Below are positions 11,669 through 30,463 of a stretch of 64,000 nucleotides of DNA, piece after piece. Source of the DNA: an uncultured virus (IMG/VR IMGVR_UViG_3300027877_000003) (taxonomy: Duplodnaviria > Heunggongvirae > Uroviricota > Caudoviricetes); the IMG/VR virus record IMGVR_UViG_3300027877_000003. One strand, written 5' to 3'. The position numbers were made by a program, and so were the translations under genes. The notes under the pieces were generated by a model. It was not told the DNA's origin. It searched no databases and worked only from the letters and a program-made list of their open reading frames with translations. Positions within the stretch are counted from its first letter, which is position 1, and every line of letters starts with the position of its first letter.

Positions 11669-11972
11669 TTATAGAATTCTTGAAGTAACTGTACTAGATG
11701 AAACGGATGCTCCAAGAGATGTTACTGGATATTTAGCAACTTGGGTTGTTTATAAACCGACTACAAAGGAAATTGTATTAACTAAAACAGTTGGTTCTGG
11801 AATTTCTGTACTTGTAGGAGCGGTGTTTGATATTACTTTAGAACCAGAAGACACCATTAATTTATTGGGACAATATAATCATGAGTGTGAACTTTTAGAT
11901 AATAGTTCACATCCATTTACTATTTTAACTGGTTACTTTAAAGTATTCTCCAGTGAAGCGAATCATCCATGA
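11628..11972 (+). CDS. BppU N-terminal-like Ig-fold structural/adaptor protein
   Basis: QNVTIYQGDYRILEVTVLD...DVTG...FDITLEPEDT..L.G.Y.HE pattern, 114 aa. Confidence 0.55.
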   Translation: MTKSGQNVTIYQGDYRILEVTVLDETDAPRDVTGYLATWVVYKPTTKEIVLTKTVGSGISVLVGAVFDITLEPEDTINLLGQYNHECELLDNSSHPFTILTGYFKVFSSEANHP

Positions 11973-12871
11973 GCAAAGTATCTATAATTATTCCTTCTAG
12001 AAATGAAATTTTTCTTGCTGAAACAGTAAAAGATCTTTTAACAAAAGCCAGTGGAGATATAGAAGTAATTGCTTTTTTAGATGGCTATTGGCCAGATGGA
12101 AACACAACTCATAATTTAGATTTATGGAATGAATTATTAGTTTCTGAAAATCCAAACATTGTTATATTACGTATAAACAATGCCAAGGGAATGAGGAACG
12201 CTATCAATTCTGCTGCCTCAATTGCTAGAGGAGAATATCTTCTAAAGTGTGACGCTCACTGTATGTTTGGTGAAGGATACGATGAAATATTAAAAGCAGA
12301 TATGCAAGATAATTGGATAGTAATTCCTCCTAGATATTCTCTAGATGCAGAGAATTGGAAGATAGAGGATAATGGAAAACCTAGAAGAGATTATCATTAT
12401 CTTTGTTATCCAGACCCAAATAAAGATCATGATCATGGTATGCATGGTGTAGAGTGGTGGAGTAGAGGCAGAGAAAGAGCCGATTATATTATAGACGATA
12501 ATATGTCTTTTCAAGGAAGTTGTTGGTTCATGAAGAAAACTTGGTTTACTGATTTCTTAGGGGGAATGAGTGAAGTAGGCTATGGAACATTTAGCCAAGA
12601 GCCTCAAGAAATTGGATTAAAAACATGGTTAGGTGGTGGAGAAATCAAAGTAAATAAAAATACTTGGTACGCTCATTTACATAAAGGATCGAGGTATGGA
12701 AGAATGTATAAAATAAATCAGAAAGAAATAATAAATTCTCATGATTGGGCTGCTAGACATTGGATGAATAATGAATGGGAAAAAAGAATTCATAATATAG
12801 ATTGGCTTATTGAAAAGTTCTGGCCTGTCCCTACATGGCCAGAAGACCGTTCTTTATGGGTAGCCCCATGA
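11969..12871 (+). CDS. GT-A glycosyltransferase (GT2/GT27-like), paralog 1
   Basis: SIIIPSRNE, GMRNAINSAA, KCDAHC (DxH), QEPQEIGLKTWLGGG..WYAHLHK. Confidence 0.85.
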   Translation: MSKVSIIIPSRNEIFLAETVKDLLTKASGDIEVIAFLDGYWPDGNTTHNLDLWNELLVSENPNIVILRINNAKGMRNAINSAASIARGEYLLKCDAHCMFGEGYDEILKADMQDNWIVIPPRYSLDAENWKIEDNGKPRRDYHYLCYPDPNKDHDHGMHGVEWWSRGRERADYIIDDNMSFQGSCWFMKKTWFTDFLGGMSEVGYGTFSQEPQEIGLKTWLGGGEIKVNKNTWYAHLHKGSRYGRMYKINQKEIINSHDWAARHWMNNEWEKRIHNIDWLIEKFWPVPTWPEDRSLWVAP

Positions 12872-13764
12872 ATAAAGTTTCTATTATTATACCATCCAGA
12901 GATGAAGAATATTTAAACAGTACAATTAAAGATTTATTAAATAAAGCGGTATGGGATGTAGAAATAATTGTAATTTTAGATGGATATACTTCTCATCCTC
13001 TTCCAGATTATGATCCTAGAATTAGATATCTACAATTACCAGAACCAATGGGAATGAGACATGCAATTAACTTAGGAGCTAATCTGGCAACTGGAAAATA
13101 TTTAATGAAGTTAGATTCTCATTGTGTAATGAGTGAAGGTTATGATCTTATCTTCCAAGAATACTGTGATGATGATTGGGTAGTGGTAGCTAGAAGAAAA
13201 GAATTAAGTCCTGAATGGATAGTTACTGAACCTACAGCGGATTATTTTTATATGAGTAATCCTTGGACTTCTCCTAATGGTTATATGAGAATGTCCAGAT
13301 GGATCACTAGAGATAAACAAAGAGAAAGCATGTTACATGATGAAACAATGTGTTTCTCTGGAAGTATCTGGTTTATGTCTAAAGATCATTTCTTCAAAAG
13401 AATTAAAACAATGGATGAAGAAAGGTTTGGTCAATGGTCTGGAGAACCAGAAGAAATTTCATGTAAAACTTGGTTAAGTGGTGGGAAGGTTATAATCAAT
13501 AAAGATATCTATCACGCCCACCTTAGGAAAGATAAAATAGGAAGACCTTATCACATTTCTTGGAATTCAGCTTTAAAGGGTTTACAAGAAAGTGCTAGAT
13601 ATTGGTCTAGTGATGAATGGCCTGACAGGATATATAATTTTGAATGGCTGATAGATCACTTCTGGCCTTTGCCTACTAAAGAACATCATTGTAATGGAGA
13701 AAGGTATTTTTGGGAGTACGACTGGAAGGAGAGGTATTTATGGAAGACATTAAATTTTTCTTAG
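12868..13764 (+). CDS. GT-A glycosyltransferase (GT2/GT27-like), paralog 2
   Basis: SIIIPSRDE, KLDSHC, WSGEPEEISCKTWLSGG..HAHLRK. ATG 12868 overlaps the upstream TGA. Confidence 0.85.
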   Translation: MNKVSIIIPSRDEEYLNSTIKDLLNKAVWDVEIIVILDGYTSHPLPDYDPRIRYLQLPEPMGMRHAINLGANLATGKYLMKLDSHCVMSEGYDLIFQEYCDDDWVVVARRKELSPEWIVTEPTADYFYMSNPWTSPNGYMRMSRWITRDKQRESMLHDETMCFSGSIWFMSKDHFFKRIKTMDEERFGQWSGEPEEISCKTWLSGGKVIINKDIYHAHLRKDKIGRPYHISWNSALKGLQESARYWSSDEWPDRIYNFEWLIDHFWPLPTKEHHCNGERYFWEYDWKERYLWKTLNFS

Positions 13765-14399
13765 AAACAAATTATCCGCTTGCAAAAGATTCTTATGATT
13801 ATATCTACCCACAGGGAGCGGCTGTAGATAATAATCGTAGACCAGAATTCAATCAAGAACTAAAAAATTTTCCAGGAAGCGTTTTAGATTTGGGGTGTGC
13901 TGGAGGAGGATTTATTAAAGATTGTGTAGACGAGGGAAGAATAGCTATCGGATTAGAGGGAAGTGATTATTGTAAAAAATTTAATAAATATGAATGGGCT
14001 ACAATTCCAGATAATTTATTTACTTGTGATATTACTAAACCATTTATATTACATATAGGAAATATAAAACCTTATAAATTTAACATCGTAACTATGTGGG
14101 AAGTTTTTGAACATATAGAAAAGAAAGATATAGATCAAGTATTTGAAAACATAAGAAATCATTTATCTGACAGCGGAATTTTTCTTTGTACAATTACTAG
14201 AGGACATAGCCCACATGACTTCTATAGAGAAGTTGATCTACACAGAACCAGAGAAAAAAGGGAGTGGTGGTTAAAACAATTTATACATAATGGATTTATT
14301 GAGGATGAGCAAGTTGAAGAAAAATTTGCTGGAAAATGGATGAGAGAAAGCAGAAGTAATTATAAACTTGCTTTCAGAAAGGATTTGAAAAGTGGCTAA
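13740..14399 (+). CDS. Class I SAM-dependent methyltransferase
   Basis: VLDLGCAGGG, IGLEGS, TCDITKP, WEVFEHI, NHLSDSGIF. ATG 13740 after GGAGAGG. Confidence 0.85.
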   Translation: MEDIKFFLETNYPLAKDSYDYIYPQGAAVDNNRRPEFNQELKNFPGSVLDLGCAGGGFIKDCVDEGRIAIGLEGSDYCKKFNKYEWATIPDNLFTCDITKPFILHIGNIKPYKFNIVTMWEVFEHIEKKDIDQVFENIRNHLSDSGIFLCTITRGHSPHDFYREVDLHRTREKREWWLKQFIHNGFIEDEQVEEKFAGKWMRESRSNYKLAFRKDLKSG

Positions 14400-15297
14400 G
14401 GTATCAATATTAATTCCTTCTCGTAATGAAACTTATAAAACTAATTTTGGAACTACAGTTCTACAACAAACAGTTATAGATGTATTAGAAAAAGCTACTG
14501 GAGATTATGAAGTTCTGGTTATATTTGATGGAGAACCTTATCAGGATTTACCTGAGCATAAAAATCTAACGGTGTTCTATAACAAATCCCCAACAGGATC
14601 TAAGAAATGTATCAGTAAATTAATTAATAGATCTACAGGAAAATTCGTATTCAAATTAGACTCTCATTGTATGGTAGCAGAAGGATTTGATGAAGTATTG
14701 CAAAAAGATGTAGAAGATAATTGGGTAGTTATTCCTAGATTTTATGTACTAAATGCTGAGGAATGGAAGTGGCAAGATGAAAGATTTTACGATTATTTTT
14801 ATCTGCCCTGTCCTTTAACTGATAAGAAGCAATTCAGATTTCAAGCTGGAGGACATTGGAAAGAAAGAACCAAAGAAAGATTAGATATTTCTATAGATGA
14901 GAATATGAAACTTCATGGTTCTGCTTTTTTTATGAGCAAAGATTTCTTTATAAATTGTATAAAGGAATTAGATTCAAAGTACGATGATTGTAGTGGAGAA
15001 GATATAGAGATAAGTTTGAAAACGTGGCTAGGATCTTGGGGTGGAAAATTAATGGTAAACAAAAATACTTGGTATGCACACATGCATAAGGGTGGCCAAA
15101 GACCGAGAGGTTATCATATGGGAGGAGAACAAATTAAAAATACATATGATTTTATAGCTAACTATTGGATGAGGAATTCTTGGGAAGAAAGAGAACACGA
15201 TTTGGAATGGTTAATAGAAAAATTTTATCCTGTTCCTACTTGGCCTGAAAACTGGAAAGAACTTTGGAATGAATGGAAAGGAGTTAATAATGAATAA
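14392..15297 (+). CDS. GT-A glycosyltransferase (GT2/GT27-like), paralog 3
   Basis: SILIPSRNE, KLDSHC, SGEDIEISLKTWLG..GG..WYAHMHK, WLIEKFYPVPTW. Confidence 0.85.
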   Translation: MAKVSILIPSRNETYKTNFGTTVLQQTVIDVLEKATGDYEVLVIFDGEPYQDLPEHKNLTVFYNKSPTGSKKCISKLINRSTGKFVFKLDSHCMVAEGFDEVLQKDVEDNWVVIPRFYVLNAEEWKWQDERFYDYFYLPCPLTDKKQFRFQAGGHWKERTKERLDISIDENMKLHGSAFFMSKDFFINCIKELDSKYDDCSGEDIEISLKTWLGSWGGKLMVNKNTWYAHMHKGGQRPRGYHMGGEQIKNTYDFIANYWMRNSWEEREHDLEWLIEKFYPVPTWPENWKELWNEWKGVNNE

Positions 15298-15931
15298 TAC
15301 TTTGAATTATTTTGTAGAAACTTTTGGACTTGACTTGTCTAATCCTTCTCCTATAACTCTGCGTTATAGTAGATATAATATTATAAATGCATTTAGAGAA
15401 CTTAATTTTTCAATGGGTGTAGAAGTTGGAACTGAACACGGAAGATATGCAGAAAAAGTAGTATCAAGTAATCCACAACTCAAATTATATTGTGTAGATC
15501 CGTACCTAGCCATACCTTATTATGAAGCATATAAAGAACAAGAAGAAGTGGATTCATTTTATGAAGTAGCTAAAAATAGACTTAGTGAATATAATTGTGT
15601 AATATTAAAGACAACTAGCATGGAAGCAGTTAAACAATTTGAAGATAATGGTTTAGATTTCGTTTTTATAGATGCTGATCATAGATTTGAATTTGTAATT
15701 AATGATCTTATTTACTGGTCTAGGAAAGTTAAGCCTGGGGGAATTGTATATGGACATGATTATATTGATGACTTTCAAGTAAAACAAGCAGTTCATGTTT
15801 ATACTGATGTATATAAAATCAATCCTTGGTTTATTTTACATAAGGGAGGAAGACTCATAGATAGCTGGATGTTTGTTAGACAAGAAACCGATCAAATTTT
15901 CCTTCCAAAAGATAGTTATTGGTATCAATAA
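15290..15931 (+). CDS. Class I SAM-dependent methyltransferase (Methyltransf_24-like)
   Basis: GVEVGTEHG, LYCVDPY, DFVFIDADH, KVKPGGIVYGHDY. ATG 15290 after AAGGAG. Confidence 0.85.
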   Translation: MNNTLNYFVETFGLDLSNPSPITLRYSRYNIINAFRELNFSMGVEVGTEHGRYAEKVVSSNPQLKLYCVDPYLAIPYYEAYKEQEEVDSFYEVAKNRLSEYNCVILKTTSMEAVKQFEDNGLDFVFIDADHRFEFVINDLIYWSRKVKPGGIVYGHDYIDDFQVKQAVHVYTDVYKINPWFILHKGGRLIDSWMFVRQETDQIFLPKDSYWYQ

Positions 15932-15932
15932 A

Positions 15933-17609
15933 ATGGATCTAAGTATTTTAATTCCTGCAAGAAACGAAATTTTTTTATCTAGAACTATTGAAGATATTCT
16001 TAAAAATATAAGAGGGGATACAGAGGTCATTGCTGTTTTAGATGGTTATTGGCCAGATCCTCCAATTGATAATGATCCTAGAGTAACCATCATTTACTAT
16101 TCAACAAGCATAGGACAAAGAGCGGCTACAAATGCAGCGGCTAGACTCAGTAAAGCTAAATATGTAATGAAAGTAGATGCTCATTGTGCTTTTGATGAAG
16201 GCTTTGATGTAAAGTTAATGGAAGATATCCAGGACGATTGGACTGTAGCCCCATTAATGAAAAATTTACATGCTTTCGATTGGGTGTGTAAATCTGTTCT
16301 ACATCTTGAAAGAGATGATAAAGAAAGAAAACTACATACTCGATATCAAGGCCCATCAGGAGTTTGTAGAGAATGTGGAAAAGAAACTGTAATGGATGTA
16401 GTATGGATAGCTAAGAACAGTCCTAATAGTACGTCATACTGTTTTGACTCAGAGCCACACTTTCAATATTTTGGAGAGTATAGAAAACGTCCAGAAGGTC
16501 AAGGAGATCTAACTGAAAGCATGTCTTTACAAGGCTCTTGCTTTATGCTGACCAGAGATAAATATTTTGAGTTAGAAATGAATGATGAATCTTGGGGGAG
16601 TTGGGGATCACAAGGATTGGAAACAGCAATACGTACTTGGCTATCTGGAGGAAAAGTAATAATTAATCACAAGACTTGGTATGCCCATATGTTCAGAACT
16701 CAAGGAGGAGATTTTGGATTTCCATATCATCTTTCTGGAAGGCAAGTAGAACACGCTAAAAAAGTAGCCAGAGAATTGTTCTTTGAGAATAAATGGGATA
16801 AACAAATTAAACCTTTGTCTTGGTTAGTAGAAAAATTCTGGCCTGTTCCTGGATGGAAAGATGAAGATTTAGTTAAATTAAAAAAAGCAGACGCTAATCT
16901 TGGCCCAACTAAAGGTATTGTTTATTATACAGATAATCAACTTGATCCAAAAATAATGCAACGCTGTCAAGACCAGTTGATTTCGTCTGTGAATAGTCAT
17001 AAGATCATAAGTGTTTCATTGAATAAAATAAACTTTGGAGATAATATTACTTTAAATTTAGAGCGTGGTTATCTAACTATGTTCAAGCAAATCTTAGCTG
17101 GACTAGAAGCTTTAGATACCGATATTGTTTTCTTTTGTGAGCATGATGTATTATATCCTCCGGAACACTTTGAATTCGTTCCTCCAGAGAAAGATAAATT
17201 TTATTATAATATAAATGTATGGAAAACTGATGGAGAACATTATCTCCATTATGATTGTAAACAAACCAGTGGATTGTGTGCCTATAGAGATTTATTAATA
17301 GAGCACTATAAAAAACGAGTTGCTAACACTCAAAAGGTTTGGGATGAACAAGGGGGTAATACAAGAGGATTTAGAGACTTTATTCGTAAACAAGGTTTTG
17401 AACCTGGGACACATAATAGATCAGAAAGAGTGGACGATTATAAATCAGAAGCTTGGGAATCTACTGTTCCAATTGTTGATATTAGACATGAAAATAATTT
17501 AACTCCTAGCAGATGGAGTCAAGATCAATTTCGAGATAAACGAAATTGTCGTGGATGGTTAGAATCAAATTCGATCCCTGAATGGGGAAAAATTGAGGAA
17601 TTTATGTAA
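15933..17609 (+). CDS. Two-domain glycosyltransferase: GT2/GT27-like paralog 4 fused to a second GT-A-like domain
   Basis: SILIPARNE, KVDAHC, WGSQGLETAIRTWLSGG..WYAHMFR; the second domain has IVYYTDN and DIVFFCEHDVLY. ATG 15933. Confidence 0.85.
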   Translation: MDLSILIPARNEIFLSRTIEDILKNIRGDTEVIAVLDGYWPDPPIDNDPRVTIIYYSTSIGQRAATNAAARLSKAKYVMKVDAHCAFDEGFDVKLMEDIQDDWTVAPLMKNLHAFDWVCKSVLHLERDDKERKLHTRYQGPSGVCRECGKETVMDVVWIAKNSPNSTSYCFDSEPHFQYFGEYRKRPEGQGDLTESMSLQGSCFMLTRDKYFELEMNDESWGSWGSQGLETAIRTWLSGGKVIINHKTWYAHMFRTQGGDFGFPYHLSGRQVEHAKKVARELFFENKWDKQIKPLSWLVEKFWPVPGWKDEDLVKLKKADANLGPTKGIVYYTDNQLDPKIMQRCQDQLISSVNSHKIISVSLNKINFGDNITLNLERGYLTMFKQILAGLEALDTDIVFFCEHDVLYPPEHFEFVPPEKDKFYYNINVWKTDGEHYLHYDCKQTSGLCAYRDLLIEHYKKRVANTQKVWDEQGGNTRGFRDFIRKQGFEPGTHNRSERVDDYKSEAWESTVPIVDIRHENNLTPSRWSQDQFRDKRNCRGWLESNSIPEWGKIEEFM

Positions 17610-20600: not shown

Positions 20601-23600
20601 GTCCATCTGTATCTCCTAGCATTTCGCCTAGTATTAGTCATAGTGCCAGCATTTCTCCCAGTCCTAGTGTCTCACCTAGTATTAGCCTATCTGCCTCTGT
20701 CAGTCCTTCAGTCTCTAGATCTATCAGTAAAAGTGCATCAGTAAGCCCGTCTATCAGCCCATCGGGAGCTGCTGATACTCCTTTCTATGAGAAATCACAG
20801 AACAATAGAGTTGTTTGGGGAGCATCAGGCACTAGAACCTACTCATTTACTTGTCCATCGGTTGATGATGGATTAATGTTAATTGGAATAACTCTTAATG
20901 CAACAATACCGGCTAATTGTTATCCGGCTACTGTAAGTTATGGAGGAACTCCATTAACTCAAGTTACTGAGAAAGTTACTTATGGGTTTAATACAACTAG
21001 CTTATGGTATCTCAAAGAACCCACAGCGGGAACGGCAGATATTGTCATAACCATCAGCAACTCCGATGTTTTTGCTATAGTTGTTCAAACAGTAATTTAC
21101 TCCAATGTTAATCAATCCAATACTTTTGGAACTCCAGTTAAAGATACTGTAGTAGTCGCTACAAACAATTTTGATACTGCGGAAATTACAAGTGCAAGCA
21201 ATGAAATTGTAGTTGCCGTTTTTGGAACACACGATGCAAATGATGAAGATGATCTATTCTCTGATAGTGGTCAAACTGTTAGATTAATAGAACAGAGCGG
21301 CGGTTCACCAGGTACTGACAAGTCAGCATTAGAAACTTTTGATGAAGAAGCTGGAGCAACATCTGTTTATTGTGGCTGGACAACTACCAGCAATTGTAAA
21401 GGTGGATGGATAGCTGTTCCAATCAGAGGTAAAATAGGGAGTGCTTCTGTTTCGCCTTCGGTGAGTTTATCTATTAGTCCATCTGCCAGTATATCACTAT
21501 CACCATCAGTTTCACCAAGTATAAGTCCTTCGGCAAGTGTTAGTCCAAGTATTAGTCTGTCTGCTAGTGTTTCTCCTTCAGTAAGTCCATCTGTTTCACT
21601 TTCCATAAGCCCTTCCGCATCAATTTCACCCAGTGTTTCTCCTTCAGAGAGTCGGAGTGTAAGTGCAAGCGCAAGTGCTTCTGTTTCTCCAAGTGTATCT
21701 GTTTCAGTCAGTCTTTCTATTTCCCCTAGTAGAAGTATATCTCCATCTGTATCTCTATCAGTTTCACGTTCAGTTAGCCCATCAGTTTCACCATCTGTAA
21801 GTTTAAGTTTATCACCTTCTGGATCTGTATCTGTTAGTGAAAGTATTAGTGCGAGTCCTTCTCCTTCTGTTGGCTCTGAATCTGTTAGTCCTAGTGTCTC
21901 TCCAAGTGTCTCTCCCAGTTATAGTGTTAGTATTTCTGTTTCACCTTCAGTATCTCCATCAGTTAGCCCTAGCATTAGCCCATCTGCTTCAGTCAGTCTA
22001 TCAGTTAGTCCAAGCGTCAGTCCTTCTGTTAGCCCTTCGGCTAGTGTATCACCATCCATCGGAGCAATCGGAGAGGTATGTTGGGGACATGATACCGATG
22101 TGGATGAAGCTAATGTATTAGATTTTGCTGGTAACTGGAGCGGGACTGGTACTATCTCAGGGACAGGAGATGCAGAAGCTATCGAGTTGAACGTAGGTGA
22201 GTATATGATCTCTGAGATCGTAGAGACAGGTGACATGATATGTGAATTACTCCAGAACGCATATGACCCATCTGGTGATGATGTGATTATGGAGTACCGC
22301 ACCGGATCAACTGTCTTTGAATGCTTTGATGCCGCTTGGACGATCTATACTGATAAATTTATTTCGGAAGGTTATGTCCAGATTAAACTAACCAACGCTG
22401 ATGTATTTTACGTTGATGCAACAGATGGAGATGATGGTAATCCAGGTACAGAAGAAGAACCTTGGCAAACGATAACCAAGGTCAATGCAGCTACTCTCAC
22501 GCCAGGTGATCATGTATTATTCAAGCGTGGAGAAACATGGCGTGGTGAATCAATGGCCGTTCCATCTTCAGGGGCTGCTGGCGCACCTATCACCTTCGGT
22601 GCATATGGGACAGGTGCAAATCCACTCATTGATCCGACAACTGAGTTTAATGACTTCAGTAGTTATAGTGGCAATATTTGGAGGCGTTCACAAGTAGGTG
22701 TAATAAGTCTCACGCAGGTATTTGAGGACGGAACACGGATGATTTTTGCTGCCAACATTGCCGCAATGGTTCAGGGATCATGGGCATACGACTCATCCAC
22801 CCCAGGCTATGTCTATGTTTGGTGTAGTGATGACGGCAACCCCAACACGGGGCATGTAATTGAGTACGATGCTGTGACCCTTGCAAATCTTGGGACAATC
22901 CAGCTGAACGGGAAATCATACCTTGTTTTTGATAGCATTGATTTTTACAGACCAGGAGATTGTGCTTTTATTGCCTCTGATACGGTTACACCATCGACAT
23001 ATGTAACTATCCAGAACTGCAACTTTTCCTTTTGTGGTGGGCGATCTATATTGTTAGGCACAGATGGCTCATATGGTTATACCTACCCGACTGATGTGAC
23101 TGTATCCAACTGTGTAGCACATGACGATTTGGATGTCCCGTTCTGGATCGGGCATGGTACACGCCTGATTATTGAAAATTGCGAAGCATATGATTGTGGC
23201 AAAGATGTTGATCCGTATGGAAAACTATATTCAACATCAAAACACTTTCCAAACGGCATCTTGATTAGTGCAGAAGCTCAGGATTGTATTGTCAGGAATA
23301 ATTATGTCCATGACATATATGATATAGCAATTCTTGATGAGCAATCAATTGGAGAAGTTGGAAATAACACAATTATTGAGGGAAATTTAATCGACATGAC
23401 AAGCAGAAGTAATACATGCTTAGAAGTCGAGGGTGACAATACAACCGTCCGCAATAACATTATATATACTGGTTCTGGTTCTGCCATCATTCTAGCAAAT
23501 AGCCCTGCATCCCCGTTGATATACAATAATACAATCATCAGTCCATCCGGGGCTGGACACTCAATAGATACAAATAGCCAGCCAGGGGCTAAGGTCAAAA

Positions 23601-23947
23601 ATAACATTATCATTCGGGCTGGTGCAACCAATCGTTATGTATCAGTAGCAATCGCAGCACAAACTAACTTCGAGGCTGATAATAACTTGTATTATGGTGC
23701 ATCTACTGGACGGTGGTTTTGGGGGCCAACTGAGTACACTACATTTGCAACCTGGAAATCTAACTCAACCCAGGATGCAAATGGGTTGAATGAAGATCCG
23801 ATAGTTGTCACACAATGGACTGATCTTCACTTGCAAGTAACTTCACCCTGCATTGGTGCGGGGGAGGCTGGACTGGTAACTGATGATTATGACGATGTAG
23901 CACGTGGCGCTACAACTGATATTGGAGCATTGGAGTATGTAGCATAA
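17609..23947 (+). CDS. 2112-aa serine-rich-repeat virion fibre/adhesin (LamG/ConA-like domains, four Ser-X tracts, WGH domain, C-terminal beta-helix)
   Basis: LSTGQWYIIEVH / WYFDDIAIND and two LQLWIDG..LDELIIND domains; (S-X)n tracts; FYVDATDGDDGNPGTEEEPWQTI..GDHVLFKRGETW start of a pectin-lyase-like beta-helix; ends DLHLQVTSPCIGAG..DIGALEY. Confidence 0.75.
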   Translation: MARVWHSGWELNNPASVEWTSTIVSTGAISSSIVRSGSYSYQITSLVSTTSKGERFAYLGSEATNEHYFRLCLYVTTFPGAENRIAIWNDGSGTATPGVYLTLDNSGVLRLYDEDGQITGTTTLSTGQWYIIEVHYSNTGGAGACVVEARVNLASPFASSSTRSIASNNSPFHFFVGGNLNGEANTVGEWYFDDIAINDTTGSFQNNWPGDGHIVHAHPNEAGEYSDWTNTYANVDEVTPDDAVTLCASNTLNQIDDHGMVTPAELESGDTINVVSVGVRYNGAGAADNASFVVRIKTGAGATPEESSAITPASTTWYTNAGAAPQLYPLTLYDLPGASTTAWTKSSLDAAQIGYRCSTANTNNAQVSTIWALIDYTPVPSSSVSPSISQSLSLSASPSLSQSASISPSISPSFSASPSPAVGILVDIDFEENNLNEFDSVVNPDDDLTVNAGYALGGTSYGLGCRIDDTNPAYGIKSGFQSLTGDVRARFLFDPNGMLKEVYTVYLLQLQNISDTNFAWVGVYCDADSYSIRAALIEDDGTAVVTSIVLGEITDAEHCAEIYVQRATGESSNDGSLQLWIDGVSIQTVTGDNFNRFGSFNKILFGIPAVGGGATSTIFLDELIINDTGNEIGCAIPSASVSPSISQSFSISPSASISFSASVSQSVSVSISPSVSVSVSPSVSLSISPSVSQSASPSPSAPIGILVDIDHEENNFSDYDSVVDVDGDLSVTSSAALGETNYGLACLIDDVNIMYGEVTSLHSMTGDLRARFHINPHGLNMADGDTITPLILYNETIGFTIAAVRLGYTTANGYFIGVGFVNDAVQYFWTTDLLGVITNQEHCVEFYLQRATTVDSIDGSLQLWIDGVSIETISGKDNYDRFASFNTLRFGVVYTAATTTGTFYLDELIINDTGTEIGCLAIPSGSISPSISPSASVSISVSPSISVSISPSISPSISPSFSVSASISPSGSISASVSPSASESPSAVESASESLSVSPSVSPSISPSISHSASISPSPSVSPSISLSASVSPSVSRSISKSASVSPSISPSGAADTPFYEKSQNNRVVWGASGTRTYSFTCPSVDDGLMLIGITLNATIPANCYPATVSYGGTPLTQVTEKVTYGFNTTSLWYLKEPTAGTADIVITISNSDVFAIVVQTVIYSNVNQSNTFGTPVKDTVVVATNNFDTAEITSASNEIVVAVFGTHDANDEDDLFSDSGQTVRLIEQSGGSPGTDKSALETFDEEAGATSVYCGWTTTSNCKGGWIAVPIRGKIGSASVSPSVSLSISPSASISLSPSVSPSISPSASVSPSISLSASVSPSVSPSVSLSISPSASISPSVSPSESRSVSASASASVSPSVSVSVSLSISPSRSISPSVSLSVSRSVSPSVSPSVSLSLSPSGSVSVSESISASPSPSVGSESVSPSVSPSVSPSYSVSISVSPSVSPSVSPSISPSASVSLSVSPSVSPSVSPSASVSPSIGAIGEVCWGHDTDVDEANVLDFAGNWSGTGTISGTGDAEAIELNVGEYMISEIVETGDMICELLQNAYDPSGDDVIMEYRTGSTVFECFDAAWTIYTDKFISEGYVQIKLTNADVFYVDATDGDDGNPGTEEEPWQTITKVNAATLTPGDHVLFKRGETWRGESMAVPSSGAAGAPITFGAYGTGANPLIDPTTEFNDFSSYSGNIWRRSQVGVISLTQVFEDGTRMIFAANIAAMVQGSWAYDSSTPGYVYVWCSDDGNPNTGHVIEYDAVTLANLGTIQLNGKSYLVFDSIDFYRPGDCAFIASDTVTPSTYVTIQNCNFSFCGGRSILLGTDGSYGYTYPTDVTVSNCVAHDDLDVPFWIGHGTRLIIENCEAYDCGKDVDPYGKLYSTSKHFPNGILISAEAQDCIVRNNYVHDIYDIAILDEQSIGEVGNNTIIEGNLIDMTSRSNTCLEVEGDNTTVRNNIIYTGSGSAIILANSPASPLIYNNTIISPSGAGHSIDTNSQPGAKVKNNIIIRAGATNRYVSVAIAAQTNFEADNNLYYGASTGRWFWGPTEYTTFATWKSNSTQDANGLNEDPIVVTQWTDLHLQVTSPCIGAGEAGLVTDDYDDVARGATTDIGALEYVA

Positions 23948-26136
23948 TGAGTGCCAGCATTTCACCCAGTTTCAGCCCAAGTCCATCAATGGCAATTGTG
24001 CAGGATGTGGTACTACGCTTCAAGGGTAGCCCAAGTGTCAGTCCTTCAATCAGTCCCTCAGTCAGCCTTTCTGTTTCACCGTCAGTTAGCTTTAGTATCT
24101 CTCCAAGTGCATCAGTCAGTCTGAGTATAAGTGAATCTCCGTCACTCAGTCCATCACCAAGCATGGGTGTATCTGAATCTGAGTCTGTTAGTCCAAGTGT
24201 ATCACTTAGTATTTCCCCAAGCATAAGCCCAAGTGCGTCTGTATCTCCTAGTATTAGTCCTAGCGTAAGTATCAGTGTTTCGCCGTCTGAATCTCCTTCT
24301 GTTTCTTTAAGCATAAGCCTTTCTGCGAGTGTTTCTCTTTCTGTTAGTCCTTCAGAATCACCTTCTGTATCAATTAGTATTTCTCCTTCGATTAGTCCAA
24401 GCGAAAGTGTATCACTATCAATCAGTCCTAGTATATCTCCGAGTGTATCACGTTCGGTTAGTCCAAGTGTAAGTCCTTCTGTTGGTGCTGTTGGTTCAGT
24501 TAGTTGGGGTCATTTGACTGGTGTAACACAAGACAATGTTTTGACATTTGCTGGTAACTGGACAGGTACTGGATCAATCACTGGAACAAATGATGCAGAG
24601 ACAATGTGTATAGATGAAGGCGAATATATGATGTCAGAGATAGTCGAGACAGGAGACATGATAGTTGTTTTGACCCAAAACACATATGACCCTGGAGGAG
24701 AAGATGCCCCAATACTGGAATATAGAACCGGAGCAACTTCCGCAGAGTGTTTTGATGCAGCATGGATAATTTATACTGCACCATTCTTATCTGCTGGTTA
24801 TGTGCAGATAAAAGTTACTAATGCAGACATATTTTATGTAGATGCCACAGGCGGGAGTGATAGCAATCCTGGTACACTGGCCGAACCTTGGAAGACGATT
24901 GATAAGGTGAATGGGGAAACATTTACGGCGGGTGATCACATCCTATTCAAGAGAGGAGAAACATGGAGTACGGTAGATGATGTATTGCGTATTACTTGGA
25001 ACGGATCAGCAGAGAATCACATTGTATTTGGTGCATACGGATCAGGTGCATTGCCGATTATCTCACCAACCAACACAATTCCTATCTATGCACCAGCAGT
25101 ACAAAGCTATATTACCGTTGAGAACATAGATTGCAATGTGAACGGGACTGGTAATTTTGGAATGCAGGTTAGATTATCTAACTCGATTATTAGGAATTGC
25201 GTGGCACGAGAAGCGGCAATGGCGGGAATACTTCTTGGATCAGATAGTGCATATACTCTGATAGAAAATTGTACTTGCTATAACAACGCACAGTTTGGCA
25301 TTCAGGGTTATACCGCTTCAGGCAGTACCATTCACGACATCATTGTTCAAAATAATACTTGTTACGCAAATGGTACTGATAGTGGTGGACATCATGGAAT
25401 ATATTTAGGCGGTAATGGAGGAACTGGTAGATGTGCATATAACCTGACTATGCGTGGAAATACCTGTTATGAAAATGCTTCTTGTGGGGTCAAATACAAC
25501 ACCGTCGAGGATAGCATTATTGAGCAGAATTATTGCTATGACAATGGTTTAGCTGGTGTATTCCTTAGTGCGGAAACAAGTCGAGTGTCCTCCAATAATA
25601 TTGTCAGAAACAATATTTGCTACTCCAATTCGTGCGGTATAGCACTTTTGGGGGACGGTGTTGATGACAATGAGCTTTATCACAACACATTGGTTTTGAA
25701 TTATGCGGCTGGATGGGCGGGCATAAGCTACTATTACGACGGACTATCCGGTAATACAGCTAAGAATAACATTATCTATATGGATAATAGCTACACTGGC
25801 GCTCCCCCTATACGCTTTGCCGGAGTAAACGCCAGAGACAATAATATTACTGACTATAATTTGATTTACTGGAAAGATAGACCACCTGCGAACGGAATAA
25901 TTTATGTGGATGGCGTGGGCTATTACACGTGGACTGCTTGGCAAGCACTTGGTAAAGATACACATAGTATCAATGCGTCCGATCCAGTTTTTGTTACCGA
26001 CTTCACCGATTTACACATCCAAACCACCAGTCCTGCTAAGAACACGGGTGAGACTGGATTAGGTGTAACCGATGATTACGAGGGTACAATCCGTGATGCC
26101 CAACCAGATATGGGTGCATATGAGTACGTGGCTTAG
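23947..26136 (+). CDS. 729-aa serine-rich-repeat fibre with WGH domain and C-terminal beta-helix
   Basis: N-terminal Ser-X tract, VSWGH domain, FYVDATGGSDSNPGTLAEPWKTI, repeated IIENCTCYNN-type rungs, ends DLHIQTTSPAKNTG..DMGAYEY. Confidence 0.75.
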   Translation: MSASISPSFSPSPSMAIVQDVVLRFKGSPSVSPSISPSVSLSVSPSVSFSISPSASVSLSISESPSLSPSPSMGVSESESVSPSVSLSISPSISPSASVSPSISPSVSISVSPSESPSVSLSISLSASVSLSVSPSESPSVSISISPSISPSESVSLSISPSISPSVSRSVSPSVSPSVGAVGSVSWGHLTGVTQDNVLTFAGNWTGTGSITGTNDAETMCIDEGEYMMSEIVETGDMIVVLTQNTYDPGGEDAPILEYRTGATSAECFDAAWIIYTAPFLSAGYVQIKVTNADIFYVDATGGSDSNPGTLAEPWKTIDKVNGETFTAGDHILFKRGETWSTVDDVLRITWNGSAENHIVFGAYGSGALPIISPTNTIPIYAPAVQSYITVENIDCNVNGTGNFGMQVRLSNSIIRNCVAREAAMAGILLGSDSAYTLIENCTCYNNAQFGIQGYTASGSTIHDIIVQNNTCYANGTDSGGHHGIYLGGNGGTGRCAYNLTMRGNTCYENASCGVKYNTVEDSIIEQNYCYDNGLAGVFLSAETSRVSSNNIVRNNICYSNSCGIALLGDGVDDNELYHNTLVLNYAAGWAGISYYYDGLSGNTAKNNIIYMDNSYTGAPPIRFAGVNARDNNITDYNLIYWKDRPPANGIIYVDGVGYYTWTAWQALGKDTHSINASDPVFVTDFTDLHIQTTSPAKNTGETGLGVTDDYEGTIRDAQPDMGAYEYVA

Positions 26137-26144
26137 GATGTTAA

Positions 26145-27602
26145 ATGGCTAGTTTTAGTGTTTCGCCTAGTGTAAGTCCAAGTCCTTCTGCTGGCACAAT
26201 TTGTATTGAGGACATTCAATTAGATTTTCTTGGTAGTCCATCAGTAAGTCTATCAGTTTCTCCTTCAGCGTCTGTAAGTTTGAGCATTTCTTTTTCAGCT
26301 TCTATATCTCCTTCAGAATCTGTTTCTCCATCAATTAGTTTATCGGCTTCTGTTAGTCCCAGTGAATCTCCTTCCATTTCTCTTAGTGCTTCTATATCGG
26401 TAAGTATTAGTCCGTCTGTTTCACCTTCGATAAGTCAATCCGCTTCAGTTTCTCTAAGTGAATCTCCTAGTGTTTCTGCTAGCATTTCACCTAGTATTTC
26501 CGCTTCAGTTAGTCTATCAATTTCACCTTCGGCCAGTGTCTCTTTAAGTATAAGTCCTTCTGTATCTGCCAGCGTTAGTGTTTCTGTATCGCCAAGTATT
26601 AGTAAATCTGCTTCGGTCAGTCCTAGTATAAGCGTTAGCGTTTCTCCGTCTATATCGGTTTCTGTTTCACCAAGTATCAGTTTCTCAGCTAGTATTTCTG
26701 TATCAATTAGTCCGTCAATTAGTCCAAGTGTTTCACCAAGCTTTTCTGTTTCCCCTTCAGTTAGTCCGAGTGTTTCCCCTTCAGTTAGTCCAAGCTTTAG
26801 TGTCTCTCCTTCAATCAGTCCATCTGAAAGTCCTTCAGTTAGTATATCAATCTCTCCATCAATTAGTCCAAGTTATTCTGTTTCAGTAAGTGAAAGTTTA
26901 TCGGTTAGCCCTTCCGTTTCACCGAGTTATTCAGTAAGTTTATCAATCTCTCCCAGTGAATCTCCATCTGTAAGTCCATCATTCTCAGTAAGTCCATCAA
27001 TTTCTGTCAGTGTTTCTCCTTCAATTAGTCAATCCGCTAGTGTTAGTGTTTCAGAATCAATTTCTGTATCAGCTTCTGTAAGCGTTTCAGAATCTCCAAG
27101 TATAAGTTTATCAGCTTCTGTTTCACCTAGCGTCAGTCTATCAGTAAGTCCGTCTATCTCCCCAAGTGCTAGTGTAAGCGTTTCTGAAAGTTTAAGTATT
27201 TCTCCTTCAGAAAGTGTAAGTGCCAGCGTTAGTCCTTCAGCGTCTATAAGTCCTTCTATTGGACTTGAAGGTTCAGTTTGTTGGGGGCATGTAACTGGAG
27301 TAGTAGAAGAAAATACAAGAACTTTTGCAGATAATTGGACAGGTACAGGAACAATTACTAGTTCAGGAGATGCAGAAACAATCTGTCTTAATTCAGATGA
27401 ATATATGGAATCAGAAGTTGTATATACTGATACAATAAGTGTCGGATTAAAGCAAAATTTTTATGAAGTTGGAGATACTATATTACTTAGATATAGGCAT
27501 GGAGCTACTAGTGTAGCTTGTTTAGCCGCTGCTTGGAATGATTATACTGTTCCATTCAAATCTTTGGGCTATGTTCAAGTTAGAATAGAGGGGATAGCAT
27601 AA
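26145..27602 (+). CDS. 485-aa serine-rich-repeat linker protein with C-terminal WGH domain
   Basis: About 370 aa of Ser-X, then GSVCWGH...LGYVQVRIE. Confidence 0.75.
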   Translation: MASFSVSPSVSPSPSAGTICIEDIQLDFLGSPSVSLSVSPSASVSLSISFSASISPSESVSPSISLSASVSPSESPSISLSASISVSISPSVSPSISQSASVSLSESPSVSASISPSISASVSLSISPSASVSLSISPSVSASVSVSVSPSISKSASVSPSISVSVSPSISVSVSPSISFSASISVSISPSISPSVSPSFSVSPSVSPSVSPSVSPSFSVSPSISPSESPSVSISISPSISPSYSVSVSESLSVSPSVSPSYSVSLSISPSESPSVSPSFSVSPSISVSVSPSISQSASVSVSESISVSASVSVSESPSISLSASVSPSVSLSVSPSISPSASVSVSESLSISPSESVSASVSPSASISPSIGLEGSVCWGHVTGVVEENTRTFADNWTGTGTITSSGDAETICLNSDEYMESEVVYTDTISVGLKQNFYEVGDTILLRYRHGATSVACLAAAWNDYTVPFKSLGYVQVRIEGIA

Positions 27603-30463
27603 TGGCTGTAACAATAGGCCCAATTGCCGTAAATGCTAGTGCTGATGATGCCAGTCAGATCAGTGCAACTGTCAGCATCACCGCTAATCCTCTAGCCAAC
27701 TGTGATACTACTGGTAACTGGAATGGTTGGATATTCCGAGGGATTACTATTCCGGCAGGAGCTACAATTACTTCTGCTTATCTAACAGTAAATTTTACAA
27801 GCACTTCTTTAGATGAACCTGATGTAACAATTTATGGATTAGATACAGAAACTCCCGCAGCTTTTGCAGTTGCAGATAATAATATATCAAGCAGAACACG
27901 TACAACTGCAAGTGTAGATTGGGCAGTTGCTAATGCGGGTGGTGCTGATATTAATACTTCTGATATTAGTTCAATTATTACTGAACTCATTGGAAGTTAT
28001 ACATACAATAATGGAGTAATGGGGTTTGTCTGGACTAGTAGAGCGGGGGATACATCTAGGGATACATCAGCTACATCTTATGATGGAAGTTCAACAGAAT
28101 GTGCCAGATTAACAATAACTTATTCCGCTCCTTCCGCAAGCTTAAGTCCTTCTTATAGTGTATCTCCAAGTGTAAGTCCTTCTTATAGCGTTTCTCCAAG
28201 TATAAGCCAAAGTTATAGTCTAAGTCAAAGTCCAAGTATAAGTCCGTCAGTTTCACCGTCAGTTAGCCCTTCAATTTCTCCTAGCTTTAGCGTTTCTCCT
28301 AGTATCAGTGAATCGTTTAGTGTTAGTCCTTCGATCAGTCCTTCAATCAGTCTGTCAGTTTCACCTAGCGAGTCTCCGTCCATCTCTCAGAGTGCTTCTG
28401 AAAGTAGAAGTGAATCTCCGTCTGTTTCTTTGAGTTTGTCGGAATCTCCAAGCGAAAGTCCTTCTTTATCCCCAAGTGTTTCGCCTTCCATTTCTGAAAG
28501 TGCTTCAGTAAGTGTTAGTGAATCTCCGTCTGTCTCTTTAAGTATTTCAGAGAGTGCAAGCGAAAGTCCTTCTATATCTCCCTCCGCATCAGCAAGTCCT
28601 TCGGTTGGTGCTGAAAGATGTGTAGAAGACATTGTTCTTTACTTCCCAGGAAGTGAAAGTGTATCTCCTAGCGTAAGTCCTAGTGTATCAATTTCAGTAT
28701 CACCGAGCGAAAGCCCAAGTATATCTCTTTCTGCATCAGTAAGTCCCAGTATTAGTGCTTCAGTTAGTCCATCGGTTTCTGTTTCAGTTTCTCCTAGTGT
28801 ATCACCAAGCGCATCAGTCAGTGTTTCAGTTTCTCCATCCATAAGTCCTTCAGTTAGTGTAAGTGTTTCTCCTTCTATTTCACTGTCAGCTAGTGTTTCA
28901 CCCTCAGTTTCTGTTTCAGTTTCACCTTCAATCAGCCCTTCAGCAAGCGTTTCTCCTTCGGTTTCGATTTCAGTAAGTCCTTCAATAAGCCCATCTGCTA
29001 GCATTTCTATTAGTGTAAGTCCCAGTGTTTCAGTTTCAGTTAGCCCCAGTGAATCCCCAAGCATTTCACTTTCAGCCAGTGTATCTGTTAGCATTTCTCC
29101 AAGCGTTTCACCTTCAGAAAGTCCATCTATTTCTCCTTCTGCTTCTGTATCACCATCTGTAAGTATCTCAGTCAGTCCTTCTGTTTCTCAAAGTGCTTCG
29201 GTAAGTATTTCAGTATCGCCTTCAGTATCACTTTCAGTTTCACCTTCAGTTAGTCCCAGTATCTCACCGAGTTATAGCGTTTCTGTCTCTGTAAGTCCTA
29301 GCGAATCTCCTAGCATTTCTGTTTCAGTTAGTCCATCTGTTTCTCCTTCACCAAGTGTTTCTCCCAGTGTAAGTTTATCTGTCTCGCCTAGTATAAGCCC
29401 ATCTGCTTCTGTTAGCGTTAGTGTAAGTCCAAGTGTCAGTTTAAGTATTTCTTTATCTGCAAGTGTTTCACCTAGCGTTAGTCCATCAGGGTCTTTAAGT
29501 CCAAGTGCATCAGAAAGTCCTAGCCCATCATTAGGGGTAAGTGGATCATGGAGTTTATCTCCTAGTTATTCAGTTAGTCCTTCAATTAGTAAATCTGTTT
29601 CACCCAGTATTTCGCCTTCCGTTAGTCCATCAATTAGTCCTTCGGCATCGGTTAGTCCATCAGTTTCTCCAAGCGTTTCAAGAAGTTTAAGTCCATCTTA
29701 CAGTGTTTCGGTTAGTGTTTCTCCAAGCGTAAGTCTATCAATTTCTCCTTCTCCGAGTGTAAGTCCTAGTATTTCGGTTTCAGTTTCTCCTAGTATTTCT
29801 CCGTCAGCCAGTGTAAGTCGTTCAGAAAGTCCAAGCGTATCTGTTAGTGTCAGTCCAAGTCCATCAGAAATATCTTCTGGATCGCTCTCACTTTCTCCAA
29901 GCTTTTCAATAAGTCCCAGTGTTAGTAAAAGTATTTCTCCAAGTGTTAGTCCTTCAGTTAGCCCAAGTATATCACCAAGTTTCTCTGTAAGTGTTTCTGT
30001 TTCACGATCAGTATCACGCTCAATTTCTCCAAGCTATTCGATTAGTCCTAGTTTTTCAGTCAGTCTTTCACTTTCTCCATCAGCCTCTCCATCAGCATCT
30101 GTAAGTGTTAGTGTATCGGCAAGTGAATCTGCTTCAGTTAGTATTTCAATTAGTCCGAGTGAATCTCCTAGTGTTTCACCGTCAATAAGTCCGTCTGCTT
30201 CTGTATCTATTAGTGCTTCTGCATCGGAATCTTTATCAGTAAGTTTAAGTCTTTCTCCATCTGCTTCTTTTAGTCCTTCAGCCTCACGGAGTCCTAGTGC
30301 ATCTCCAAGTCCATCATTACCCCCATTACAAGATAAGCTACAATTAATAGGATCTATTATAGAAGTACAGAGTTTAGTAGGAAGTGTATATTCAATTCAA
30401 AGACAAACTTTACTAGGAAGTATAATTATAATAACTAGTTTATTAGGTGAGGTAAATAATTAA
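27602..30463 (+). CDS. 953-aa serine-rich-repeat protein with N-terminal beta-sandwich domain and C-terminal L-x-G-S repeats
   Basis: ASADDA..FRGITIPAGATITSAYLTV..ARLTITY domain, about 730 aa of Ser-X, C-terminal LIGS/LVGS/LLGS/LLGE repeats. Confidence 0.75.
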   Translation: MAVTIGPIAVNASADDASQISATVSITANPLANCDTTGNWNGWIFRGITIPAGATITSAYLTVNFTSTSLDEPDVTIYGLDTETPAAFAVADNNISSRTRTTASVDWAVANAGGADINTSDISSIITELIGSYTYNNGVMGFVWTSRAGDTSRDTSATSYDGSSTECARLTITYSAPSASLSPSYSVSPSVSPSYSVSPSISQSYSLSQSPSISPSVSPSVSPSISPSFSVSPSISESFSVSPSISPSISLSVSPSESPSISQSASESRSESPSVSLSLSESPSESPSLSPSVSPSISESASVSVSESPSVSLSISESASESPSISPSASASPSVGAERCVEDIVLYFPGSESVSPSVSPSVSISVSPSESPSISLSASVSPSISASVSPSVSVSVSPSVSPSASVSVSVSPSISPSVSVSVSPSISLSASVSPSVSVSVSPSISPSASVSPSVSISVSPSISPSASISISVSPSVSVSVSPSESPSISLSASVSVSISPSVSPSESPSISPSASVSPSVSISVSPSVSQSASVSISVSPSVSLSVSPSVSPSISPSYSVSVSVSPSESPSISVSVSPSVSPSPSVSPSVSLSVSPSISPSASVSVSVSPSVSLSISLSASVSPSVSPSGSLSPSASESPSPSLGVSGSWSLSPSYSVSPSISKSVSPSISPSVSPSISPSASVSPSVSPSVSRSLSPSYSVSVSVSPSVSLSISPSPSVSPSISVSVSPSISPSASVSRSESPSVSVSVSPSPSEISSGSLSLSPSFSISPSVSKSISPSVSPSVSPSISPSFSVSVSVSRSVSRSISPSYSISPSFSVSLSLSPSASPSASVSVSVSASESASVSISISPSESPSVSPSISPSASVSISASASESLSVSLSLSPSASFSPSASRSPSASPSPSLPPLQDKLQLIGSIIEVQSLVGSVYSIQRQTLLGSIIIITSLLGEVNN

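Follow-up and report, generated by a model that had tools for sequence, protein, structure and literature searches.

In the uncultured caudovirus IMGVR_UViG_3300027877_000003 (IMG/VR), of which we analysed a stretch of 64,000 nucleotides (hereafter the window, meaning that whole stretch), four adjacent genes encode serine-rich proteins, p1 to p4, which between them carry three copies of a domain named here after its motif WGH and three copies of a 12-residue peptide set in serine-X (Ser-X) repeat tracts. Our main finding is that the peptide of one such protein probably docks on the WGH domain of another, a reading supported by a predicted complex, by the co-occurrence of the two elements in related phages, by their matched copy numbers, and by covariation at the predicted contact. 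We hold this reading with reasonable confidence, and the exact order in which the four proteins would be joined with less. p1 to p4 would then belong to a single multi-subunit phage fibre held together by a peptide-in-socket joint, in which the WGH beta-sandwich is the socket and the peptide, lying between flexible Ser-X spacers, is the plug.

A domain and a peptide offset by one gene

The four open reading frames (ORFs) lie side by side on the plus strand, have a serine content of 16–40%, and are packed such that each start codon overlaps or almost abuts the stop codon of the preceding gene. A first-pass annotation made from the letters alone had placed WGH domains in p1, p2, and p3, each directly after a Ser-X tract, and 12-residue peptides in p2, p3, and p4, with domains and peptides offset by one gene; all of these assignments held at their exact positions (Table 1). 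In p1, p2, and p3 the motif begins at nt 22082 (aa 1492), 24505 (aa 187), and 27282 (aa 380), and the closing GYVQ ends at 22381, 24807, and 27578, respectively; the Ser-X tracts directly before the domains measure 212 aa in p1, 157 aa in p2, and 347 aa in p3. The three copies of the domain are 50–68% identical pairwise, and 49 of 122 columns are invariant. Each peptide is the sole short non-Ser island of its protein, p1 having none, and at the N termini of p2 and p3 it is the only non-repeat element available for attachment.

Predicted complex of the WGH domain with the peptide

We modelled the WGH domain of p3 in complex with a 41-aa segment of p4 (alignments of 60 and 5, respectively). The scores were 0.80, 0.80, and 0.82, while the best of three controls reached 0.12; the score mark we applied is reached by 116 of 157 solved complexes and by 2 of 215 mismatched pairs, counts that are approximate here because the alignments were our own. 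The partner had a predicted local distance difference test (pLDDT) value of at least 57, and at least 95% of the contacts agreed between runs. The residues of the p4 segment in contact, 12–26 (AERCVEDIVLYFPGS), are exactly the peptide. In the lowest-error contacts it runs antiparallel to WGH residues 6–9 and 62–66, and Cys43 of the domain sits on the peptide Cys (1:43 with 2:15), a pair found among the 25 lowest-error contacts listed. A sequence search of the PDB with the WGH domain gave no relative at E ≤ 1, so it is unlikely that the score reflects memory of a homologous complex. The model thereby supports WGH–peptide binding, short of demonstrating it, and a complex prediction of just this kind, which the first-pass annotation had put forward as a check, came out in favor of the p3–p4 pair.

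Peptide and domain in related phages

Scans with the WGH alignment gave 7 viral loci (L001–L007) and 54 metagenome loci (L009–L062), of which L009 and L010 come from the phage of the window itself and L011–L013 are one relative whose WGH domain is 84% identical (83% for L013 against the p1 domain). The peptide has the consensus x-[Y/C/V/I]-[V/I]-[E/Q]-D-[V/I]-x-L-x-F, and we term the residue just before [V/I][E/Q]D P0. After a gene that ends in a WGH domain, the next gene very often encodes a long Ser-X protein with this motif as its only short island (L004, L006, L011/13, L020/21/23, L034, L037, L038, L042/43, L045, L046, and L048). About 16 non-redundant locus groups with visible neighbors carry the peptide, either in the product of the gene that follows the WGH gene or within one and the same protein (the window, L004, L005/50, L006, L011/13, L017, L018, L020/21/23, L034, L037, L038, L042/43, L045, L046, L048, and L063). 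Peptide and domain stand in one chain in L018 and P0077, and in L005/L050 the motif (YVSDVTLKY) lies beside a WGH gene in a repeat context other than Ser-X. A loose form of the motif had 3 matches in 57,289 aa of WGH-family proteins versus 0.64 in shuffles, with two of the three embedded in Ser-X; this excess, together with the recurrence of the peptide in the Ser-X tracts of related phages, indicates that the peptide is not a product of chance.

The copy numbers of the two elements match: 1:1 in relatives, 2:2 in L017, and 3:3 in the window. In L017, two WGH proteins are followed by one scaffold with two peptides, whose order follows the order of the two WGH genes. The first-pass annotation had expected copy numbers to covary in homologous loci, and these loci agree with it; the part that does not fit is formed by six locus groups without a clear peptide, described below. 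In L013 the peptide, VVQDVVLRFKGS, is nearly that of p2, and its carrier is a LamG-headed protein which is unrelated to p2 outside the peptide and whose LamG-like head is 32–41% identical to that of p1. Judged by sequence, a cognate WGH–peptide pair would seem to have survived a change of carrier protein between L013 and p1/p2.

We also searched viral contigs from the side of the peptide, using three back-translated DNA patterns, which gave 19 matches. Two were embedded in Ser-X, and both adjoin a WGH gene (L063, a new locus, and L066, which is L004). Three (L065, L071, and L073) belong to a single small protein family that shares the 8-mer but is unrelated and lies away from any WGH gene, and the remaining matches were chance, out of frame, or in short ORFs. 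Peptides in loci lacking the domain had been named in the first-pass annotation as evidence against a joint; neither of the two Ser-X-embedded matches is such a case.

Some further islands and repeats were seen in these loci. In L038 (4243–11345), the WGH protein and the scaffold each have one copy of a second island, AFLLDDLILEW, alongside the Cys-type peptide, and a partial WGH-like match was seen in a 1067-aa protein encoded upstream. Several scaffolds end in short tandem units resembling the docking peptide: p4, L004 (10318–13389; IVEDVEL inside an 11-aa repeat), and L001 (1571–5425; QQDVEIVRI-like units). Such units may be further plugs or a self-association element.

Covariation across the predicted contact

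The WGH residue and the peptide residue that meet in the model, 43 and P0, vary together. Ala43 occurs with Tyr P0 (L004, L017b, L020, L034, L045, L048, and L063); Cys43 with Cys P0 (the p2 and p3 domains of the window with the p3 and p4 peptides, L017a, L018, L038, and L042); Ile43 with Val P0 (L006 and L046); Glu43 with Ile or Val P0 (the p1 domain of the window with the p2 peptide, and L013); and Asp43 with His P0 (L037). Cys43 is rare in the WGH family, being found in 12 of 164 aligned rows with the window and its twin included. A remark in the first-pass annotation that conserved Cys residues could add disulfides fits the Cys–Cys pairs, at which such a bond could form.

Permutations were run on 12 hand-picked loci with a single pair each; the window and L017 (multi-copy), L005/50, P0077, L063 (found later), and peptide-less or ambiguous loci were left out. 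In this set, none of 5000 permutations reached the observed mutual information between 43 and P0, and none of 20,000 reached its 8 Ala–Tyr or Cys–Cys matches. Among all 1020 pairs of a WGH column with a peptide column, 43–P0 ranked first (z 5.8) and a second model contact, 64 with P+6, ranked 7, while the other 20 testable contacts listed ranked 63 or lower. This covariation test is independent of the complex model.

Fold and distribution of the WGH domain

A profile search of 1.84 billion representatives returned 439 WGH proteins at E ≤ 0.001 (330 at E ≤ 1e-10), and WGH is a currently unannotated module in at least 439 protein clusters. It had no match in Pfam (E ≤ 0.01), PHROG, or NCBIfam, and tblastn against GenBank phages gave none; a scan of genome contigs with the WGH alignment gave 48 pattern matches, none of which was confirmed, and the domain was not found in G001 (22 kb), the nearest record to the window. 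The ESM Atlas returned unnamed clusters only (scores 0.89–0.90), and a literature search found no description of the WGH domain, the docking peptide, or the Ser-X fibre type. Among the best 150 of the 439 proteins, 131 have the domain at their extreme C terminus, 13 have it at the start, and 6 in the middle.

AlphaFold2 (AF2) predicted the isolated p3 domain with a pLDDT of 94.9 and a predicted template modelling score (pTM) of 0.86. The top match in a fold search was the ligand-binding domain of EphA2 (Z 6.8), followed by phage tail proteins (phi812 baseplate 9euf_0, Z 6.3; SU10 tail 7z47_G, Z 5.9) and carbohydrate-binding modules (CBMs), namely CBM35 4qb1_A (Z 5.9, root mean square deviation 2.9, 84 residues aligned), CBM6 2cdo_A (Z 5.8), and 7ay3_A (Z 5.6); all lie below Z 8, where a match may reflect just a common arrangement. 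Foldseek gave no match at E ≤ 0.001 in the PDB or BFVD, and the best one noted, 2cdp_C, had a probability of 0.96 but an E of 0.037. WGH is thus predicted to be a self-sufficient, CBM-like beta-sandwich. Since the domain is predicted to fold fully alone, a docked strand would seem to augment a whole domain rather than complete an unfinished fold. The first-pass annotation had cast the peptide as a donor strand for the WGH domain of a neighboring subunit; strand docking is in line with the model, the copy numbers, and the covariation, and the predicted fold speaks against fold completion.

A strand supplied in cis by the residues just before the domain was considered and rejected, as the 30 upstream residues are heterogeneous in 129 rows, where the preceding sequence is the end of a beta-helix, a LamG-like domain, or some other domain. 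By eye, the peptide resembles the NVLDFAGNW strand of the WGH domain itself. In L007 (5546–9298) the WGH match is split over two adjacent ORFs (profile positions 3–70 and 76–113), which may be an insertion or a broken gene. A set of small WGH proteins of 125–181 aa (P0004, P0081, P0089, P0091, P0115, P0128, and P0134; also L004 9005–10333) have N termini of 25–65 aa in which a short peptide, different in each protein, is repeated in tandem two to four times, for example RITQASVEVLR (four copies), YWKYGVPI (two), or ADVQW (three). These tandem peptides may be other anchor or plug types.

Evidence against docking, and a lectin alternative

A number of observations weigh against the docking of the peptide on the WGH domain. 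The controls for the complex were unrelated proteins and not hydrophobic strands in Ser-X flanks, and they are no measure of peptide specificity. When full-length p3 was predicted with AF2, its own peptide (aa 20–31) stayed undocked, with a pLDDT of 44–48 and no strand; the alignment in that run was very thin over the peptide, and the run presents a cis arrangement, whereas our hypothesis predicts docking in trans. This second method thus gave a negative result, which we let count as one. The interface did not stand out by conservation (entropy 1.95 versus 1.67 for the rest, p 0.16; 9 of 29 conserved positions lie in it), and by these figures we rejected the notion that the interface residues are the conserved core of the family. 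Most of the best 150 WGH proteins lack a Ser-X tract, and only 2 of them carry the peptide in their own chain. The pairing rule has an exception in P0077 (Ala43 with Ile P0), and L005/50 combines Thr43 with Tyr P0. A clear peptide was not seen in six locus groups with visible neighbors (L001/41, L002, L019/22, L028, L030, and L031). In L001/41 the island PEVVQGVGIAT fails the motif, and L002 (5229–19188) has three WGH proteins and no Ser-X. The L019/22 scaffold is 86% identical to that of L020 apart from an ∼85-aa gap that removes the peptide, which reflects either a true deletion or repeats collapsed during assembly, and the visible downstream DNA of L028, L030, and L031 holds no peptide. The shafts of L002 consist of acidic repeats of ∼15 aa with many 'hEDVV'-like units, some of them just upstream of the WGH domain.

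Relatedness is a further concern of the same kind. A tree of 20 WGH domains had 1 well-supported inner branch of 17, and a tree-aware, underpowered test of independent pairs gave agreement in 2 of 2 (p 0.5). With the tree this poorly resolved, linked inheritance of neighboring genes could make part of the covariation. Within the one supported clade (L013, p1, and p2), the change from Glu43 to Cys43 accompanies a change of the assigned partner from Val/Ile to Cys. That change, and the presence in L017 and the window of mixed socket types with number-matched peptide types, are harder to ascribe to linkage.

Finally, because the WGH domain is predicted to fold alone and its nearest folds are CBM and Eph domains, a lectin role is equally natural for it. 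WGH could be only a lectin or CBM-type tip for host glycans and the peptide an unrelated feature of the Ser-X stalk, such as a knot for oligomerization or for aligning the chains of one fibre, with both traveling together as one gene cassette. The CBM35, CBM6, and phage tail proteins among the best fold matches fit this alternative, as do the self-sufficient fold, the C-terminal location in 131 of the best 150 proteins, which is the usual place of a receptor-binding tip, the absence of cis docking in p3, and the tandem peptide-like units ending the p4 and L004 scaffolds, which suggest a self-associating strand motif. The same alternative leaves unexplained both the 43–P0 covariation (A–Y, C–C, I–V, and D–H) at an independently predicted contact and the matched copy numbers of L017 and the window, and it gives no account of how p2 and p3, which have no N-terminal domain, stay in the virion; moreover, every fold match is below Z 8 and no Pfam CBM matched. 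We consider it unlikely. The first-pass annotation had itself counted a WGH domain that folds completely alone as a lectin as evidence against its proposal: the domain does fold alone, as a prediction, and its CBM matches have Z values of 5.6–5.9. A separate lectin role, next to docking, is possible.

Proposed assembly of the fibre

Under docking, the peptide would lie as a beta-strand antiparallel to the N-terminal strand of the WGH domain (6–9) and to segment 62–66, P0 would pack against residue 43, and this pair would set the type of the joint. Where both residues are Cys, a disulfide could lock the joint, with oxidation after lysis. The p1 domain (Glu43) would take the p2 peptide (Ile), and the p2 and p3 domains (Cys43) would take the Cys peptides of p3 and p4. 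The resulting 4-3-2-1 chain, or branch on p4, would tie together two beta-helix depolymerases and several lectin-like domains, with the Ser-X tracts serving as long flexible spacers.

The p1–p2 link of this arrangement is specifically supported, at the level of sequence comparison, by L013, where a p1-type domain (Glu43) travels with a p2-type peptide. The order beyond p1–p2, and which end holds the virion, we infer. The first-pass annotation had proposed a 1-2-3-4 daisy chain or a branch; the first link fared well, and the p2 and p3 domains, both Cys43, are indistinguishable in their pairing with the p3 and p4 peptides, both Cys. Type matching cannot separate these pairings, and so the joint could be real in another topology, for example with the p2 domain taking the p4 peptide and p3 capping itself or forming a homopolymer, or with the N-terminal domain of p1 as the virion base instead of p4. 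Domain and peptide do share one chain in L018 and P0077, and in phages of the KP32 type it is the anchored primary protein that carries the domain and the secondary one that carries the peptide (PMC13352976). Against another topology stand the peptide order in L017, which follows that of the WGH genes, the AF2 prediction in which the p3 peptide did not dock on p3's own WGH domain, and the retention of the p4 N-terminal domain in a locus without WGH (L008), which suggests that p4 attaches on its own. An arrangement other than 1-2-3-4 seems to us somewhat unlikely.

Candidates for the virion anchor are p1, whose N-terminal domain matches phrog_14065, and p4, whose N-terminal domain is kept in L008. 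That locus encodes a 950-aa protein with an N-terminal domain 68% identical to that of p4 and with 16-aa shaft repeats in place of the Ser-X tracts; it has no Ser-X-embedded peptide island and no WGH gene within 20 kb, and its downstream genes are collinear with the window. Because L008 keeps this domain without WGH, p4 looks like a core gene, and p1–p3 and the transferase genes look like additions. The shaft repeats of L008 (7074–12844) read 'GITDSLSKIGTF', and a LamG-like domain like that of p1 lies in the same region. The gene that precedes the p4 relative has a Pfam Gp77 fibre-tail adaptor domain (E 1.1e-26), for which there was no match among the window ORFs scanned.

We tentatively extend the docking reading, as a possibility that we rate below even, to a wider one. 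WGH could be a general peptide socket of uncultured phages, in which residue 43 and its neighbors read P0 and some pairs are locked by a disulfide. Enzyme and lectin modules would be strung or branched on long, probably glycosylated Ser-X scaffolds as a virion-borne, cellulosome-like assembly, and matched pairs would be swapped between phages. On this view, the acidic 'hEDVV' repeats of L002 and the tandem peptides that open the small WGH proteins would represent additional kinds of plug.

Ser-X tracts, sugar genes, and the surrounding module

The window genes form one block, all on the plus strand and phage-like, and the block is a phage structural module (Table 1); a search for tRNA genes across the window found none. 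The beta-helices of p1 and p2 score 57.9 and 54.8 bits against Pfam Beta_helix, both above the gathering cut-off of 25.9, and that of p1 is probably a polysaccharide depolymerase, going by this similarity.

Membership of p1–p4 in the serine-rich or SD-repeat adhesins was not borne out: the best NCBIfam score was 139.4 bits against a cut-off of 650 (p4, NF033849), ClfA scored 111 against its cut-off of 1150, and the adhesin matches cover the repeat tracts only. In p3, AF2 drew beta-strands in part of a Ser-X tract (aa 33–88; 26241–26408; pLDDT 48–65), and the Ser-X tracts may, on this model, have beta propensity rather than full disorder.

Large sets of sugar genes lie beside the Ser-X fibre genes in the window (121–3667 and 10424–17609) and in five relatives (L004 13436–20320, L013 1597–8777, L017 241–3082, L037 3261–7616, and L054 3–8297). 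Their types are GT2, GT1, GT25, methyltransferases, a cytidylyltransferase, SIS, DegT aminotransferase, radical SAM, and epimerases. The Ser-X loci of L004, L013, L017, L037, and L054 are bordered by genes for glycosyltransferases and methyltransferases, that of L006 by an epimerase gene; in L002, which has no Ser-X, a search for sugar genes found none, and L008 gave one weak match only. The presence of such sets beside Ser-X fibre genes suggests that the tracts carry many O-linked glycans, among them possibly methylated sugars, and we take O-glycosylation of the tracts to be probable. The seven genes directly upstream of p1 would be candidate modifiers of the tracts; the GT1-like match among them falls below the Pfam cut-off.

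The same flanking genes, in the window and in L004, L013, L017, L037, and L054, would also suit a different role for the peptide, as a signal for a process unrelated to WGH, such as recognition or priming by a glycosyltransferase, or proteolytic or other processing. In that case, what the model shows would be any hydrophobic strand laid on an exposed sheet edge; the controls were not strand-like peptides. We saw no sign of contact between the peptide and any enzyme, the peptide covaries with a WGH residue, and in L005/L050 it lies outside Ser-X yet still beside a WGH gene; a signal of this kind is very improbable.

Between 50000 and 64000 of the window, GC content drops from ∼0.33–0.44 to ∼0.25, and the genes there include an amidoligase, a COOH-NH2 ligase-like gene, a glutamine amidotransferase, and a RuvB-like gene. 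This region may be a different module or possibly of different origin.

Table 1. Positions of the serine-rich proteins, their domains and predicted docking peptides, and other genes in the window.
Feature	Position	Strand	Description
Seven genes directly upstream of p1	10424..17609	+	GT1-like (one, weak), GT2 (four), methyltransferase (two)
p1, 2112 aa	17609..23947	+	N-terminal domain, two LamG-like domains, 219-aa domain, WGH, beta-helix; Ser-X tracts between
WGH domain of p1 (aa 1487–1600)	22067..22408	+	residue 43 Glu
Right-handed beta-helix of p1	22409..23944	+	Pfam Beta_helix, E 1.2e-15
p2, 729 aa	23947..26136	+	Ser-X, peptide, Ser-X, WGH, beta-helix
Predicted docking peptide of p2, IVQDVVLRFKGS (aa 17–28)	23995..24030	+	P0 Ile
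WGH domain of p2 (aa 182–296)	24490..24834	+	residue 43 Cys
p3, 485 aa	26145..27602	+	Ser-X, peptide, 347-aa Ser-X tract, C-terminal WGH
Predicted docking peptide of p3, CIEDIQLDFLGS (aa 20–31)	26202..26237	+	P0 Cys
WGH domain of p3 (aa 372–485)	27258..27599	+	residue 43 Cys; used for the fold and complex models
p4, 953 aa	27602..30463	+	172-aa N-terminal domain, Ser-X, peptide, 561-aa Ser-X, 45 aa of C-terminal peptide-like units; no WGH
Predicted docking peptide of p4, CVEDIVLYFPGS (aa 340–351)	28619..28654	+	P0 Cys; partner in the complex model
p4 C terminus (aa 909–953)	30326..30460	+	about four tandem units of 10–12 aa with a peptide-like pattern, hhxxhxLhGS, by eye
Tape-measure protein	35015-39892	+	PhageMin_Tail match
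YQBQ-like tail protein	within window	+	recognizable by similarity
GH25 lysin	47843-48898	+	

Comparison with known systems

The predicted fold of the WGH domain may resemble the beta-jelly-roll of CBM6, CBM35, and CBM36 (Z 5.6–5.9), and the domain stands next to glycan-degrading domains. It differs from them in that it has no sequence membership (at E ≤ 0.01, p3 matches no Pfam family, nor do the WGH parts of p1 and p2, and NCBIfam gave none for the isolated domain), in that its fold scores are no higher than common arrangements can give, and in that the evidence points to a peptide as its ligand.

In chaperone-usher pili, a strand from the neighboring subunit is added to a beta-sandwich to give head-to-tail chains; the pilin fold is incomplete without this strand, which is an N-terminal extension of the same domain. 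The joint proposed here would share the addition of a neighbor's strand to a beta-sandwich, as predicted by our model. It would differ in that WGH is predicted to fold fully alone, in that no chaperone or usher genes are present, and in that the strand sits within long spacers.

Cellulosomes offer a second comparison: a scaffold with docking sites and Ser/Thr/Pro-rich, often glycosylated linkers recruits polysaccharide-degrading enzymes, and the dockerin is a Ca-binding helical module. The L017 scaffold, with two peptide types for two WGH proteins, is reminiscent of cohesin–dockerin pairing. Here, however, the roles would be inverted, the scaffold carrying peptides and the enzymes the sandwich domain; the plug would be a strand and not a Ca-binding helical module, and there is no sequence relation. 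A literature search for a phage counterpart of cohesin–dockerin found a biofilm review only.

By analogy, the closest known system is the branched receptor-binding protein (RBP) complex of the KP32 type, with the same logic and an apparently different joint. There, a T4gp10-like branching domain (XD2/XD3) on a primary RBP receives a conserved N-terminal docking peptide of a secondary RBP in Klebsiella phages KP32, K11, and KP34 and in E. coli phages K1-5 and G7C, CBA120 having three layers; this pair is the only well-studied joint, already used to engineer phages (PMC13352976). Measured against that description, in the window too a fibre or spike protein would dock by a short conserved peptide on a small domain of a second such protein, and several depolymerase-bearing proteins would hang on one anchor. 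The peptide is likewise N-terminal in p2 and p3 and conserved in relatives, and both elements can be combined in one protein, as in p2 and p3, each of which would add a layer. The differences lie in the socket, apparently another, unannotated beta-sandwich (T4 gp10 was not among its fold matches, which does not exclude a relation); in the peptide, which can be internal (p4, L017, and L013); in the Ser-X spacers, hundreds of residues long, in which both elements are set; and in the paired Cys residues, which suggest a covalent lock. Polarity is probably reversed relative to KP32, as the socket is mostly C-terminal on an accessory protein and the peptide is on the scaffold.

With branched fibres, some phages bear several depolymerases at once and so broaden the range of hosts open to them. 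If our reading is true, the WGH domain and its peptide would be a second, unrelated joint for such fibres, and a small one, with a 110-aa socket and a 10–12-aa plug, whose type appears to be set by just one or two contact residues and which a disulfide may sometimes lock. It would explain how multi-protein fibres assemble in many uncultured phages, give an annotation to a widespread and currently nameless domain family, and offer a compact, orthogonal protein-joining pair, while the repeated link with glycosyltransferase clusters makes heavily glycosylated phage fibres a testable theme. Where the known branched RBPs join their layers through the T4gp10-like domain and its docking peptide, these phages would do so through the WGH socket and a strand-like plug.

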